From assembly GCA_951406725.2 (NCBI GenBank), contig OX597839.1:17236001-17300000 (forward strand): 64,000 nt of DNA, read 5' to 3'. Below, piece by piece: positions 11,725 to 59,646 of the stretch. The notes below the pieces were generated by a model that made no database searches, was not told where the DNA came from, and saw nothing but the letters and a program-made list of their open reading frames with translations. Position 1 is the stretch's first letter, and each line of letters starts with the position of its first letter. Made by a program: the position numbers and the translations under genes. Source of the stretch: Octopus vulgaris (lineage: Eukaryota).

Positions 11725-11924
11725 TGTTTTTGCCAACTCGCCACCACTTGACAACCGATGTTGTTGTGTTTACGTCCCCATAACTTAGCGGTTGGGCGAG
11801 AGACCAGATAGAATAAGTACTGTGCTTACAAAAAATAAGTCCTGGTGTTGATTTCTTCGACTAAAGGCGGTGCTCTAGCATGGCCGCAGTCAAATGACAA
11901 AAACAAAAATTAATATAAAAAAGA

Positions 11925-11926
<2 letters not shown>
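11725..11926 (+). mobile_element. SINE family A, 3' half
   Basis: CTTGACAACCGATG..TAACTTAGCGG..GACTAAAGGCGGTGCTCTAGCATGGCCGCAGTCAAATGAC. Confidence 0.88.
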
Positions 11927-13965
<2,039 letters not shown>

Positions 13966-14012
13966 ATTATGTACATATTCTTTTACAAACTGTACATAAG
14001 AGTATGTATATA

Positions 14013-14413
14013 TTCTTTTATTCTTTTCTCTTTATTTTGTTATTTGCTGGTTTACCGCATTTAGCCAAGCAAACAAATCCAGGGCTTATTCTTTATAAGC
14101 CTAGTACTTACTTTGTCGGTCGTTTTCGGCGACCCGCTAAGTTACCTGGACGTAAACACACCAGCATCGGTTGTAAAGGGAAGTTAGGTCGGCAGAGAGA
14201 CAGACAGAGAGACACTCATACACACACACACACACACATATGTATATATTTATATGGGCATCTTTCAGTCTCCGTCTACCATATCCACTCAAGGCTTTGG
14301 TCAGCGCGGGACTATAAGTAGAAAACAATTGCCAAGGGTGCCACGCAGTAGGACAAAACCCGGCACCATGTGGTTGGTAAGCAAGCTACTTACCACGCAG
14401 CCTGTCCTGCGCC
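14013..14413 (-). mobile_element. SINE family A
   Basis: Reverse complement of the head ..GCAAGCTACTTACCACGCAGCCTGTCCTGCGCC plus body motifs. Confidence 0.88.
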
Positions 14414-16034: not shown

Positions 16035-16099
16035 CATATATATATACTCACACATACACATATATATATACACACATACACACCTATATATATATATAT

Positions 16100-16329
16100 A
16101 TTTCTTTACTGCCCACAAGGGGCTAAACATAGAGGGGACAAGCAAGGACAGACAAAGGGAGTAAGTCGATTACATCGACCCCAGTGCGAAACTGGTACTT
16201 TATTTATCGACCCCGAAAGGATTAAAGGTAAAGTCGACCTCGGCGAAATTTGAATTTAGAACCTAACGACAGACGAAATACCGCCAAGCATTTCACCCGG
16301 CGCGCTAACGTTTCTGCCAGTTCGCCGCC
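16100..16329 (-). mobile_element. SINE family B, full length
   Basis: Reverse complement of the 57787 copy (head GGCGGCGAACTGGCAGAAACGTTAGC; core CCTTTCGGGGTCGATAAATAAAGTACCAG; tail GGGCAGTAAAGAAA). Confidence 0.92.
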
Positions 16330-17246
16330 TTTATATATATATATACACCTATATATATATACACCTACATATATATATACATACATATATATATATGTAT
16401 ATATATATACACACACACATATATATACATACATATATACACACACATATATGCATATATATACATATATATATACACACATGTGCTTGTTTGTATATAT
16501 GCACTCACGTATGTGTCTGTTCATGTACGTATGTGTGTATATATATATATATATATACACCCCCACCCCCCACACACAAACACATATAGATGAACGATAG
16601 CAACTCGTCCCATGACATGCTAAAATTAGGAGGCAAGGTCTCCCACAAATCAAACGTTCTTCGTTTGTAAGTTAACAAATACTATTTCTCAACTGGTTGT
16701 TTTGCATTAACACAAACACAATGTAGGACGTGCCTGCGCATTGTTTCCGTGTAATGCATTCATAAAGGTGTCATTAATTAGCCTGAATCTACAACAGGAG
16801 ACACTCGCCCCCCAGATTCTGCACAGTGAGCCGGAACCTAAAACCACGTCGTACAAAGCGAACTTTTTAGTCACTGTGCCATTCCCTGCATGTATATATA
16901 TATATATATATAGAAATATACTAAAACATGAATGAACGTAAATGAATTTTTATTTCAATTACAAGGATTTGGAATATTTTCATTTATTTTCAGTGTTTCT
17001 GATTCATTCTTTGCAATGTATTAGACAGATACTTGTGTGTGTGTGTCTATGTACGCATGTATGTGTGTATGTAACCAAGCATGCTTGTATATGTGTGTAC
17101 GCATATAATGTATTCATGTCTGAACGTTTATAGATATTCATATGCGTCTACATGTGTGTGCGCATGTGTATAAATAGATATAATGTGTATGTGTGTAATA
17201 TCACGTGTCTATGTTTATATGTATGCATACTTGTAATCATGTATGG

Positions 17247-40681: not shown

Positions 40682-41281
40682 GACAAAAAAAAGAAAAGAT
40701 ATATAAAATGGAAAGTGTGTGATGTCCATACCTTTCTTAGAATGGAAGAAAATAGCCGGCAACTTTTATTACATCTATAACGTGTATGTTTATGAATTAT
40801 ACCGAACCACATTAAAATACAAATCCTAAACAATAGTCATGATTCTTCCATAATATCAGTTTTTACAAAAGAAAAAGAAAAAGAGGAAAAAAGAAAAGAA
40901 GAGAGAAAAAGAAAAGAGAAAAGGAAAAGAATCATCATAGCAGCACCAAATGCTTCATTTGGTCGCACACCACAAGATTCAGCGGAACCTACTGAAGCAA
41001 GCAAGTACAGTTGCAGCATTAGTCAGGGCGATGGCGAGGCTTAGGCGTTGGAAAAGCCAAGCGCCCTCACGGGCATCACCTGACATCTCGGTGAGGCGAG
41101 CTGCCAACGATGAGAAGAACTTCGCTGTTAGTGGCCCAGTCACTCCAAATGTCTCAAACGCCACAAGTTGGAAGAGATAGTTCACTGTCAGGTCCCGATA
41201 CTTCAAGGTTTTGTTCCGTTCGGCTATCAAAGCTGCGTAGCGTAGGGTAGGGTCTCGGTCAAGCAAAAGCTTAGAAAACAT
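40682..41281 (-). mobile_element. 5'-truncated CRE-clade (RLE-type) non-LTR retrotransposon: endonuclease C-terminus plus 3'UTR
   Basis: Open frame 40979-41281 AALIAERNKTLKYRDLTVNYLFQLVAFETFGVTG..RLTEMSGDAREGAWLFQRLSLAIALTNAATVL fits the AExxKxxKY..AxETxGxxG..QRLSxAIxxxNA signature of CRE-type restriction-like endonucleases. Confidence 0.8.
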
Positions 41282-42009: not shown

Positions 42010-42598
42010 TCCTTTATTAGTTTCAGTCATTAGACTGCGATCACACTGGGGTACCGCCTTGAATTAATCAACTCCAGTACTTATTTTTCTTAAACCTGGT
42101 ACTTATTCCATCGGTCTCTCTTGCCGAACTGCTAGATTACGGGGACGTAAACACATCAACACTGATTGCCAAGCGGTGGTAGGGACAAAGAAAAGATATA
42201 TAAAATGGAAAGTGTGTGATGTCCATACCTTTCTTAGAATGGAAGAAAATAGCCGGCAACTTTTATTACATCTATAACGTGTATGTTTATGAATTATACC
42301 GAACCACATTAAAATACAAATCCTAAACAATAGTCATGATTCTTCCATAATATCAGTTTTTACAAAAGAAAAACAAAAAGAAAAAGAGGAAAAAAGAAAA
42401 GAAGAGAGAAAAAGAAAAGAGAAAAGGAAAAGAATCATCATAGCAGCACACACGCATATATGACAGGTTTCTTTTAGTTTCCATCGACGAAATCCACTGA
42501 CAAGGCTTTGGTCGGATAAGTGCCTTCTATAGTAGAAGACACTTATCCAGAACAGTGTGGTTGGGAAGCGAGCTTCTTACCACACATCCAAGCCTGCA
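42010..42598 (-). mobile_element. SINE family A interrupted by a CRE-like 3'UTR copy
   Basis: SINE motifs at 42010-42188 and 42450-42598 flank the insert. Confidence 0.82.
42184..42449 (-). mobile_element. second near-identical copy of the CRE-like 3'UTR (40682-40946)
   Basis: GAAAAGATATATAAAATGGAAAGTGTGTGATG...GAATCATCATAGCAGCAC matches apart from A-tract length. Confidence 0.9.
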
Positions 42599-45413: not shown

Positions 45414-46073
45414 CAGATCTTACATTGAGGTAGGTTTTGCATTTAATCACGATCGGAGGACATGCATAATATAAATAAACTATCGTTTATCAGGTTCACT
45501 GCAGAGGTATTCAATGTCCAAAACAAACCCAACGGTAATGCTGCTCCGTCAGTCAAGGGAGGTCACTCTCATAGGAGCTTAATTTCAATTTAACAATTGT
45601 TTAAAATTTCTCTATACATTTTCTGGTTAACCTCCAGTGTTTGACCCGAGCAAAAAACGGAAAAAAAGTGTAATAGGTGTAAAACAACATGTAGTGAACG
45701 AATATGGTGAAAAAATGCGCACTGACGAACAGAGGCCGGTTAGACGACACGGGAATTCACATCGGGAGTGTTCTGAGTCCTCTCACCACTTCCCCGTTCG
45801 TTGGTCGATGTTTTTCTTCGTATTCGTTTGTTACACATTATTTTACACCTAGTACACTATATGTTTTTCAATTTTTCCGTTTTAGAATATTTGTTAAATT
45901 GAAATTAGGCTCCTACGAGAGTGACCTCCCTTGACTGACGGGGCAGTATGACCGTTGGGTTTGTTTTGGGCATTGAATACCTCTGCAGTGAACCTGATAA
46001 ACGATAGTTTATTTATATTATACGTGTCCTCCGATCGTGATTAAATGCAAAACCTACCCCAGTGTAATATCTG
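45414..46073. repeat. nested long inverted repeat (foldback)
   Basis: 45414-45596 is the near-exact reverse complement of 45891-46073; an inner, more diverged inverted pair lies at ~45668-45750 and ~45777-45857. Confidence 0.92.
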
Positions 46074-56262: not shown

Positions 56263-57786
56263 AGTAGATTAAAGGAAAAGGATACCAAGAAGACAATATA
56301 AAAGCTGAACAAAGAAAAGTAAGAATGGTACAGAAAGGAATAAAGGATAACACAGAGAAAGTTGTCCACCAGTAGACCTATGATCAGAAAATGTTCATCC
56401 ATCTTATATTATTCAATGTAGTGAAGAAAGCATCTTCAAATATCTTAGTTATTTTTATAGACTTTCAAGAAGGATTTGAGGGAAAATTTAGTTGCTATTT
56501 CTAACTGATTGAGCAACTAGAAAATTGACTGGTAAAGTTGGAAGTTGATTTAACTAAAAACCTCTAACCCATAATACTATACTGATACAAAAAGATTCCA
56601 CCAGCAGATGTGTGATCAAAAATGTGTGAATCACACCCATCTTTTATTCAGACAGCATATTCTGGTCACAAAAGGGTTAAAATGATTGAATCTTCCATCA
56701 AAATATCATGTTAAATTGTGTTCCAAACCCCAACTTGATAATGAAAAGGTTATTTTACTAAATTTTTCATTATATTTAAAATTAATTGAAACTAAGGCAA
56801 TGTATTTCAACAGAAATATAGTAACTAAAGGGTTGAAGTGATTCAAATTAAAACATTCCTTCAAAGTTTCATGTTAATTTGTTTTAAACACTGGTTTAAT
56901 AATGACAAAGTTGTTGTTGTCATAAGAAATTATAAACTTTCAAGAGAACATGAAATAATTTTTCTGGAATAGTTGATCTCAAAGCTCACAAAGCTATAAA
57001 TAATAGTATGTAAATATTAGGTTGGAAAACATTTTTTGGATAGAAAAATTTGAAGGCAACATATTTTAAGAGAAATATGACGGCTATCCAATGTGTTCTG
57101 CTTATTTTCATAGATGTTCAAGGATTATTCAAGGGAGATTTAGATTTTGTTGTTATTTCTAGCTAATTGAGCAACCACATCATTGTTCCTTATCAACTGG
57201 TAAAGTTGGGATTTGCTTTAACTAAGAGAAGAAATCTATCCCATAATGCCATTCAGTGCTGACATCTTAAAATATGTTTTAAATCAACAGCAAAACTAGT
57301 TCACTCATTTTAAGGTTTCATTTTACCTAACCAAAGTAATTTGTCGTCTGGCCTGATATATTTTTATTTATGTTTTTTGTATTTATCTTAGTTTTGGTTC
57401 AGTTTATGCTTTTTTTTTCCATTTAAATTTCTAAGAATTCTTCCTTCATTCTTCCTTGTTTATTCTCTTCTTTCTCTTTATTTCTTCTTTACTTTCTCTT
57501 TCATTACATTTTTTTCTACATTTTTCTTTCTCCCTTTTTTTTATCTTTCATCCTTCTCACTATCTTTTTCTTCTCTCTTTTGCTATTTTCTGTCTTTATT
57601 CTCTTCTTCCCCTCTAAATTTAGGAGCCCTCAGTTCTGTGGACTGACAACAGAAACGCATGAACACCACCAGACTAAATGTTTACTTATATCCCTTCTAA
57701 TTCAAACTCTTGCTTCATTCAATAAACTTACCAAACCAGGCAGGCATACTGTAAAGCTGTTTCAGTTGACTATATAAACTGTCCTA

Positions 57787-58015
57787 GGCGGCGAGCTGGC
57801 AGGATCGTTAGCATGCCGGGCGAAATGCATAGCTGTATTTTGTCTGCCGTTACGTTTTGAGTTCAAATTCCACCGAGGTCGACTTTACCTTTCATCCTTT
57901 CGGGGTCGATAAATTAAGTACCAGTTACGCACTGGGATCGATGTAATCGATTTAATCCCTTTCTCTGTCCTTGTTTGTCCCCTCTATGTTTAGCCCCTTG
58001 TGGGGAATAAAGAAA
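57787..58015 (+). mobile_element. SINE family B, young and full length, with 15-bp TSD
   Basis: GGCGGCGAGCTGGCAG head to AATAAAGAAA tail; TATATAAACTGTCCT (57771-57785) versus TATATTAACTGTCCT (58018-58032). Confidence 0.93.
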
Positions 58016-58378
58016 CATATATTAACTGTCCTTCTACAAGTATGTAACCTTTTCTTGATGTACAAAATCAGTGTAGGAACACTTTATGGCAGAAATAACT
58101 ATGTTAAATTGTAGTATACATACATATGTACATACATACATATATATATATATAATTTATATATATATATACATATATCATATATGACTAACATTAACTT
58201 GCACACCATCAGTTATGATGATGGGTGTTCCAGTTGATCTGAACAATGGAACAACTTGCTTGTGGAATTAATGTGCAAGTGGCTGAACATTCCACGATAC
58301 AGTTCTATATTTAAGAGATGAAGAATTATATACATTATTTACAGTCGACGTATATTTGTCATCATCTTGTTTGTTGTT

Positions 58379-58424
58379 AACACAACATTTCGGGTGATAT
58401 ACCCTCCAGCCTTCTTCAGGTGTC
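58379..58424 (-). ncRNA. minimal type I hammerhead motif (left arm)
   Basis: GACAC-CTGAAGA-A-GGCTG GAGGGTATAT CACCC-GAAA-TGTT-GTGTT. Confidence 0.7.
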
Positions 58425-58725
58425 TTGGGGAAATTTCGAACCTGAGTTCTCATTCCTAAGGTATTTTTCAATGCTGTTATTATTATTATTATTGTTAGTG
58501 TTTAGGTTACTGCTTGGAATTGAACTCGGAATCTTGGTATTAAGCACTATACCATATGCCCACGGGCATATAGCGTAGTGGTTAAGAGCGTGGGCTACTA
58601 ACCCCAAGATTCTGAGTTCGATTCCAAACAGTGACCTGAACATTAACAATAATAATAATAATAATAATGATAACAACATTGAAAAATACCTTAGGAATGA
58701 GAAATCAAGTTCGAAATTTCCCCAA

Positions 58726-58771
58726 AACACCTGAAGAAGGCTGGAGGGTTTTCCAGCCAAAACTTTGTGTT
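58726..58771 (+). ncRNA. minimal type I hammerhead motif (right arm), GAAA mutated to AAAA
   Basis: AACAC-CTGAAGA-A-GGCTGG AGGGTTTT CCAGCC-AAAA-CTTT-GTGTT; stems I and II are perfect. Confidence 0.65.
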
Positions 58772-59646
58772 AACAAAAAACAAGATGAGGACAAATATCC
58801 GTCAAATGTAAATAATGATTCCTCAACGATGTGTACACTTAACATAGTTCTCAGGAAGATTCAGCATGACACGGAATGTGACAAGGCTGGCTGGCCATTT
58901 GAATTACAGGTACAACTCATTGTTGCCAGCTGACTGGACTGATGCAATATGAAATAAAGTATCTTGCTCAAGGACACAGCCTACCACCAGAAACTGAATT
59001 CACAACTTCATGATCATGAGCCAAATACCTTAATAAATAAGAAATACGCTTTATATATGCAAGTATATATATATACTATGTATGTTTATATACACATACA
59101 ATATTCTAGTGCACACACACATATATATGATATACATATATTTATATATATGATGTGAATACACACTTTATATTCTGTTGAAAAAATATATATATATATA
59201 TTAATATTGTAGTAAGTATACATGTATATACGTACATATATTAGTAAATATATATTATATATATTTATATCATATATGTTATATATACACACATAATATA
59301 TTACATTATATATGTATATATACATACACACACAAACATATATGTATATTTTTATATATATATTACATCATATATATATATATGTGTGTGTGCATGAATA
59401 TATATTATACATGTGTGTGTGTGTATATCTATATCTATATCTATCTATCCATATATATACACACACACACACATGTGTGTATGTGTTTGTATGTATACAT
59501 ACATACATATATAATATGAAAATGCCATGTTATTTGTAAGCTGGATTAACCTTGATCACATTAGTTAATCCAGCTTTTGAAGAAAACTGTTAGACTTTGC
59601 ATCTTTGTATAAGTTCTGTACTGTATAAAATTGCTTTACCTCATAA

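Follow-up and report, generated by a model that had tools for sequence, protein, structure and literature searches.

A tRNA-derived head within the pLTR of a decayed Poseidon-type Penelope-like element of Octopus vulgaris

An inverted pair of repeat arms in the octopus genome

The window considered here is a stretch of 64,000 nt of the Octopus vulgaris genome (assembly GCA_951406725.2, contig OX597839.1, positions 17,236,001 to 17,300,000). Near its end two arms of ~260 bp are joined head to head, the left on the minus and the right on the plus strand (Table 1), as had been proposed in a sequence-only reading of this DNA. In the alignment, the left and right arms have a mean column identity of 86%, with a 16-nt gap in the head of the left arm. 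The A box, the B box and the (AAT)n linker lie where that reading had placed them, and each arm indeed carries a different lesion: in the right arm the G of GAAA is missing, and in the left one stem II of the hammerhead has a mismatch. Given the lost G, the right-arm hammerhead is predicted to be inactive. The expectation that the lesions hide a complete minimal hammerhead was borne out by the majority sequence of 39 arms, which contains the full motif. Likewise, the pair does interrupt an older repeat, the two flanks of which are contiguous in nine uninterrupted copies.

Table 1. Features of the inverted pair and its surroundings (positions in the 64,000-nt window)
Feature	Position	Strand	Details
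Interrupted older interspersed repeat, left part	58201-58297
Probable TSD, left copy	58289-58298	+	3 nt shorter than the right copy
Left arm, pLTR copy with long, tail-bearing 3' end	58298-58561	-	16-nt head deletion
PLE 'tail', optional, ~30-35 nt	58298-58332	-	left arm only; first part of the sequence on the ORF side in the coding element
Left hammerhead, minimal type I	58380-58423	-	core intact, one stem II mismatch
Fold-back junction	58554-58571		on a native short palindrome of the element
Right arm, complete pLTR copy with short 3' end	58564-58817	+
tRNA-derived head, right arm	58564-58639	+	A box 58571-58581, B box 58616-58625
(AAT)n linker, right arm	58645-58676	+
ATG in frame with the 835-codon consensus ORF	58697-58699	+	frame crosses the ribozyme; left-arm equivalent 58451-58453
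Right hammerhead, minimal type I	58727-58770	+	G of GAAA lost at 58759; cut equivalent 58766/58767
Probable TSD, right copy	58818-58830	+	13 bp
Interrupted older interspersed repeat, right part	58818-58978

Two details of the junctions had to be revised. The dinucleotide AC, described earlier as a 2-nt spacer, is present but was not made at joining, because it belongs to the native palindrome just upstream of the head. Similarly, ACGAT at both junctions does mark a duplication, but its length is probably ~13 bp rather than 5 bp, in agreement with the rest of the family, in which exact duplications of 11-14 nt were found in 23 of 69 inverted pairs. The 5-bp reading is less probable but conceivable, since 58818-58825 is also similar to the tail of the element. 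A transcript over 58298-58817 is predicted to fold into a long hairpin (~-300 kcal/mol, 84% of positions paired), and the thousands of inverted pairs in the genome may thus provide dsRNA substrates for A-to-I editing.

Identity of the head and of the hammerhead

ARAGORN called no tRNA in the head, and Rfam searches at gathering and E-value thresholds produced neither a hammerhead nor a tRNA match. The tRNA origin of the head was derived from alignment to tRNAs of the host genome. Among 25 distinct tRNAs of six isotypes from the same genome, the best match is tRNA-Arg(TCT), with 52 identities over 73 nt (z 7.4 against shuffles); the isotype of the source tRNA is uncertain. Both the A and the B box fit the consensus and are as far from the 5' end as is usual. 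As for the ribozyme, the Rfam test proposed in the sequence-only reading gave no match, but the consensus fits our own minimal-hammerhead descriptor, so that the consensus pLTR is predicted to bear a minimal type I hammerhead. An intact core is present in 135 of 211 arms; the sole common non-CpG variant of the core lies at the free position. The linkage between head and ribozyme, first noted in the window, holds in other genomic copies: 23 of 30 loci selected by their head continue through the ribozyme, two end between the linker and the ribozyme end, and five end in the AAT run.

The unit is the pLTR of a coding Penelope-like element

Two of 30 loci selected by the tail extended into a reading frame and thereby led to a decayed Penelope-like element (PLE). 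A PLE sharing the tail had been anticipated, and in this element the end of the unit joins the start of the ORF. We then mapped 64 loci against the unit and the body of the element. In 17 of the 22 loci in which the body reaches its end, the sequence continues past the ORF end into the beginning of the head; the remaining five are truncated or rearranged. The junction between the ORF end and the head has 1,030 matches in the genome at one mismatch, as opposed to none for the reversed control. On the other side, the pLTR joins the ORF start in many loci, and a complete head-bearing pLTR precedes the ORF in L128 and L151. L171 and L182 are near full length, and partial tandems or flanking pLTRs are found in L171, L182, L126, L135 and L151. 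No copy combining a complete head-bearing 5' pLTR with a complete body was seen, the nearest being L182.

The architecture of the element is pLTR, one ORF encoding an RT followed by a GIY-YIG-type endonuclease, and pLTR, the head beginning 30 nt past the ORF stop. The majority sequence of 26 body fragments contains a single open frame of 784 codons, or of 835 codons when counted from the ATG within the pLTR and read through the ribozyme. Spacer lengths in the pLTR change in 9-nt steps in 94 of 97 arms (overlapping loci counted), which keeps the frame. The ORF matches Pfam RVT_1 above the cut-off. Its C-terminus has a 38% alignment to protein P0081, located in the Pfam GIY-YIG part of the latter; on the decayed copy L153 itself, Pfam GIY-YIG had no match. 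Inspection against the Neptune-type locus L061 revealed an endonuclease with the CCHH motif and without the CX2-5CxxC linker, a combination that, according to passages of PMC8557442, separates Penelope/Poseidon from Neptune/Nematis. In the RT tree the element is far from two Neptune-type ORFs and is placed amid unnamed relatives, including an Anolis protein; its closest relatives are 60-72% identical. Judged by its consensus, the element appears to possess all those features of Penelope/Poseidon EN+ PLEs that could be scored. An intact ORF was not found in the 150 copies scored out of 460 ORF candidates, the longest open frame being 465 aa. A GIY-YIG family search returned Neptune-type PLEs, and the 30 short and 16 long loci examined include no case in which the tail is part of the locus's own structure; the tail met in L063 is an unrelated inserted copy.

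Taken together, the unit including its head is the pLTR of a decayed Poseidon-type PLE. The idea of a separate non-autonomous SINE/retrozyme hybrid did not gain support, as the whole unit is the coding element's own pLTR. What the unit has in common with SINEs is a tRNA-derived head with A and B boxes at its 5' end. A SINE would share only its 3' end with a distinct partner; here the coding element bears the entire unit.

Abundance and age of the family

A genome search with the right arm returned 5,469 candidates, 40 of which were scored and are 87-92% identical over the whole unit. An exact head pattern has 3,421 matches in the genome and is met exactly by 14 of 46 known heads, from which we estimate ~11,000 heads in total; a 3' 23-mer of the unit has 8,576 matches. 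Junctions of the fold-back type account for 1,254 matches genome-wide, part of them counted on both strands. The bulk of the copies are solo pLTRs, ORF sequence being present upstream of the head in five of 30 head-selected loci. Mean non-CpG divergence is 3.9% (213 arms). The same stretch is also covered by contigs from four DNA runs, the labels of which name four other organisms. Among the eight pieces listed for each run, X9 and X14 each have one that spans the junction between ORF and head, and X7, X9 and X14 contain fold-back ends at the head. Contigs of four runs presumed to be RNA likewise cover the element; as they give neither start nor strand nor level of transcription, they were left out of the argument.

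Copy ends and formation of inverted pairs

Four samples, one of them selected for the long end, were pooled into 118 loci comprising 190 arms with a 3' part and 69 inverted pairs. The 3' ends are bimodal: they fall at unit positions 239-248 in 80 of the 190 arms and at 269-285 in 90. One long and one short arm are combined in 62 of the 69 inverted pairs, and the pair in the window is of this type. Flank duplications of at least 7 nt are present in 35 of the 69 pairs, compared to 5% of mismatched flanks, with a peak at 12-13 nt. The palindromic dimer, which had been regarded as the unit, has two heads in only ten of the 69 inverted pairs, and the position of the junction differs between loci; pairs are therefore made anew at insertion. 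The related suggestion that the inversion arose in the manner of Penelope fared better, because long and short arms, duplications of ~12 bp and a palindromic junction are published marks of PLEs. Specifically, passages of PMC3846280 and PMC8557442 describe insertions with an inverted pLTR, a palindromic head-to-head junction, a tail on one arm and duplications of 8-10 bp.

The two arms of a pair share the variant at the free ribozyme position in 46 of 56 pairs (55% expected by chance), and CpG positions other than 226 display no excess sharing. The templates of the two arms were thus often alike but not always the same, and, the sharing of this subfamily mark being incomplete, neither the joining of copies of one RNA nor that of two RNAs accounts for all pairs.

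A possible mechanism is offered by the Anolis Poseidon protein. According to passages of PMC11167929, this protein cuts and extends both strands in vitro, and reverse transcription begins at two internal sites bounding the tail. By analogy, the octopus protein would cut both DNA strands at the target, and reverse transcription would start at two sites just inside the ORF, leaving the long end on one strand and the short end on the other. If so, the combination of long and short ends in inverted pairs provides genome-scale support for the two-site internal priming observed in vitro. The cDNA may then fold back on the native palindrome at the head, and the two cDNAs may be joined via microhomology. 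Priming at the first pLTR of an RNA initiated at the head would yield a solo copy of SINE size.

Several further observations concern the structure of individual copies. Positions 76-112 of the unit are an (AAT)n run; 28 of the 190 arms begin there, and several lie in genomic (AAT)n tracts. Passages of PMC11167929 report that the Anolis enzyme prefers ATT, and the linker may accordingly be the element's own target site. L126 (1051-1775) and L135 have the same joint of a pLTR, 230 nt of the ORF start and another pLTR, pointing to the copying of a derivative with an internal deletion. L178-L181 are near-identical copies, on contigs C31 and C7, of one 360-bp piece from the interior of the PLE body, probably within a duplicated segment.

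Does the head act as a Pol III promoter?

Among 94 arms that reach the head start, 85 stop within -18 to +10 of it, compared to ~7% expected from background truncation, a rate that is too low because of the length-selected samples, though not by tenfold. This sharp stop marks either the end of the template or a strong fold-back site. In addition, the sense strand of the consensus has no TTTT in 2,929 nt at 22% T, yet 32 runs of AAAA. Synonymous shuffles have 2.9 TTTT on average (P 0.018), or 4.3 if Phe codon usage is neutral (P 0.008). Six Neptune-type ORFs of two families in the same genome contain 7-9 TTTT and one other ORF contains three, and there is no depletion of TTTT across 24 related ORFs taken from metagenome loci (164 observed vs 135 expected). 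GGGG and CCCG are likewise absent from the consensus, which makes the TTTT test a modest one. Both the sharp head boundary and the absence of TTTT fit Pol III transcription, although neither proves it. In particular, the 5' boundary is not specific to Pol III, since palindromic 5' ends and head-to-head junctions are described in passages of PMC3846280 for PLEs with TATA-like pLTRs.

Overall, we favor as the probable reading a Poseidon-type PLE with a tRNA-derived Pol III promoter in its pLTR, two-site internal priming and fold-back. Within it, initiation by Pol III at the head is itself more likely than not. The weakest part is read-through of the whole ORF by Pol III, which would account for the TTTT-free sense strand and which we regard as conceivable, if somewhat doubtful. 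Being uncapped, a Pol III RNA serves poorly as an mRNA, and the protein may therefore derive from other transcripts. Equally tentative is the broader picture of a once-autonomous coding retrotransposon which would have obtained its full-length template RNA from Pol III through a captured tRNA promoter, with a terminator-purged ORF of 2.5 kb and solo copies as a SINE-like by-product.

The head might instead be a passive relic: an old SINE ending in (AAT)n would have inserted downstream of the ORF of a Poseidon-type element. Transcription by Pol II would then start in the pLTR or in host sequence, the 5' peak would reflect a palindrome acting as a fold-back hot spot, and the absence of TTTT would be due to chance. 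In known PLEs the pLTR does contain the start site as well as an internal promoter of Pol II type (passages of PMC8557442), and palindromes at pLTR 5' ends are known as well (passages of PMC3846280); however, ~90% of the octopus copies halt at a palindrome of 5 bp yet pass the longer ribozyme and 3' hairpins, and L004, L017, L020, L023 and L096 start at the first base of the head without any fold-back. The head with its (AAT)n does resemble a simple SINE, but its A and B boxes are at consensus and at the usual 5' distance. As to chance, P for TTTT is only 0.01-0.02, and TTTT is missing as well from the ORF of L221, one of the 24 relatives, which has no tRNA-like head. On balance, we consider a passive head unlikely, and retain the promoter-bearing pLTR as the preferred reading.

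Relatives of the element were also screened for heads of this kind. A tRNA-like segment after the ORF was detected in one of 25 ORF-end regions (L240, z 3.4, as opposed to z 7.6 for the octopus element). L240 is a tandem PLE on a metagenome contig (2756-3200), 35% identical, in which a weakly tRNA-like segment with A- and B-box-like motifs begins 73 nt after the ORF stop and is followed by an AAT-rich stretch and then by a minimal hammerhead. Each 2.8-kb unit of L240 has two TTTT, both just after the ribozyme, with none in the rest of the ORF, a pattern that speaks neither for nor against the Pol III reading. L240 is a possible second case in another organism. The related PLE L221 (2904-5047) lacks TTTT in its ORF region but has many in the flanks, and there is no tRNA-like segment after its ORF.

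Solo copies and their likeness to SINEs

Solo units could also be seen as a self-propagating Pol III SINE that uses the PLE enzyme, in which case the SINE would have replaced the end of the PLE and thus given rise to the ORF-linked heads. Solo copies certainly outnumber those linked to ORF sequence (the 5 of 30 loci given above, and ~11,000 estimated heads vs 460 ORF candidates). A solo copy has the promoter boxes and the priming sites and lacks TTTT; against this, the template in Anolis needs ORF sequence beyond the priming sites (passages of PMC11167929), which is absent in solo units. Passages of PMC3846280 report that in Adineta the pLTR sequence alone moved cargo in trans. Such a SINE should have had a head-less partner, but the 22 ORF ends mapped above (17 entering the head, five truncated or rearranged) include no head-less PLE end, and a distinct partner PLE was accordingly rejected. 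Moreover, an informal look turned up neither common flanks nor recurrent junctions, either of which would point to master copies among the solo units. An independent SINE is thus improbable. As parts of the Poseidon-type PLE, the solo copies resemble a SINE, and some of their behavior may be that of a SINE.

The hammerhead does not set the copy ends

The hammerhead cut is located between unit positions 188 and 189. The 3' ends of copies lie 50-95 nt downstream of it, and there is no peak of 5' ends at the cut, five of 190 arms starting at unit positions 181-197 vs ~7 expected from background truncation. Mapping of both ends thus contradicts the proposal, made for the window, that the RNA end is set by self-cleavage, and the hammerhead was rejected as the end-setter. 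A retrozyme-like RNA with ends made by hammerhead cleavage, inserted as a palindromic dimer, is hence very improbable: the complete consensus hammerhead and the origin of animal retrozymes from pLTRs (passages of bioRxiv 10.64898/2026.07.22.740005) would speak for it, but the copies end away from the cut, form dispersed inverted pairs rather than head-to-tail arrays and have arms on opposite strands, unable to form a tandem dimeric ribozyme, and insertion of Anolis Poseidon is unchanged by ribozyme mutants (passages of PMC11167929). In the Poseidon-type element, the hammerhead is an ordinary pLTR ribozyme with no part in setting the copy ends.

Comparison with known elements

Compared with what is described in passages on Penelope/Poseidon PLEs (PAc of Anolis, PMC11167929; Pen2a of Adineta, PMC3846280), the octopus element has the same single ORF with RT and C-terminal GIY-YIG-type endonuclease without a Zn-finger linker, the same overlap of the pLTR with the ORF start, a minimal hammerhead, an inverted 5'-side pLTR with a palindromic junction, an optional tail of 30-40 nt on one arm and duplications of 9-14 bp. 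It differs in having a tRNA-derived head with A and B boxes in place of a TATA/Inr or intron-overlapping promoter, in lacking TTTT on the sense strand and in being represented mostly by solo pLTRs.

A Pol III promoter derived from a small RNA and located within a terminal repeat is known from TRIMp3 elements (Cassandra, Helenus and Ajax), and passages of PMC10886601 propose that it originated by insertion of a SINE into the repeat. However, TRIMp3 are short non-coding LTR elements with PBS, PPT and a TSD of 4-5 bp, as opposed to a coding PLE with duplications of ~12 bp, and their autonomous partners are expected to need Pol II (same passages). Schistosome Sm-alpha and Sj-alpha (passages of PMC2770079 and PMC6765202) combine a tRNA-derived head, a Pol III promoter and a hammerhead in a short repeat, so that the statement in the sequence-only reading that retrozymes lack tRNA heads does not hold: Sm-alpha, a SINE-like element derived from a tRNA, contains a hammerhead. 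The schistosome repeats are SINE-like, often tandem and processed by the ribozyme, and those passages describe no coding element with the same head. Non-LTR retrozymes of animals, as presented in passages of 10.64898/2026.07.22.740005, share with the octopus unit the type I hammerhead, the origin from pLTRs and the dependence on the PLE enzyme, but form tandem head-to-tail arrays, whereas in octopus the inverted pairs are scattered and terminate at a distance from the cut. Both the occurrence of minimal hammerheads in pLTRs and that of pairs on opposite strands have already been described (passages of PMC4209133).

The new point would therefore be the tRNA-derived A/B-box module inside the pLTR of a coding PLE, which we did not find described. 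In the literature searched, neither a PLE pLTR with a tRNA head nor a tRNA SINE mobilised by Penelope is described, although the unit may have an entry in a repeat library such as Repbase, Dfam or SINEBase. Specifically, no tRNA head in the pLTR of a coding PLE is mentioned in the passages of PMC13282606, PMC4758252 and PMC5786205. Two short motifs had no match in the published supplements searched. Octopus SINEs OK, OR1 and OR2 with tRNA-related heads (Arg for OR1 and OR2) were reportedly described by Ohshima and Okada in 1994, and the solo unit could have been catalogued earlier under one of these names. OR2 is listed as a CORE SINE in passages of PMC4758252.

According to passages of PMC10886601 and PMC5786205, autonomous retrotransposons are held to be transcribed by Pol II, with Pol III transcribing only short non-coding passengers. 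A tRNA promoter in the terminal repeat of a Penelope element would blur this divide. If our reading is correct, the element would be LINE and SINE in one and would suggest a route from Penelope elements to SINEs. In practical terms, roughly ten thousand sequences of this genome that pass for 'SINE' copies are ends of PLEs, which repeat libraries would misfile.

Other repeats and open frames

The Neptune-type loci L061 (1245-3587) and L062 (1364-3706) contain intact PLE frames of 781 codons, and many near-identical copies are present in G000, suggesting a young family. The minimal-hammerhead descriptor found no motif in these two 7-kb loci. L131 has an open frame of 721 codons belonging to another element, opposite to the PLE piece. 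The GIY-YIG match in L048 resembles what we take to be an exon of a host SLX1-type nuclease.

Several other repeats are present in the window. Segments 40690-40946 and 42187-42449 are a direct duplicate (263 bp, 97.7% identity), and 45414-45606 and 45880-46073 an inverted one (194 bp, 93%), which may be another inverted insertion. Positions 11747-14178 form a self-inverted, very AT-rich stretch of 2.4 kb (GC 8% in 12001-14000), probably a microsatellite. Finally, another abundant short interspersed repeat is represented by two copies (88%) at 57786-58022 and 16094-16330, the first of which lies near the inverted pair described here.
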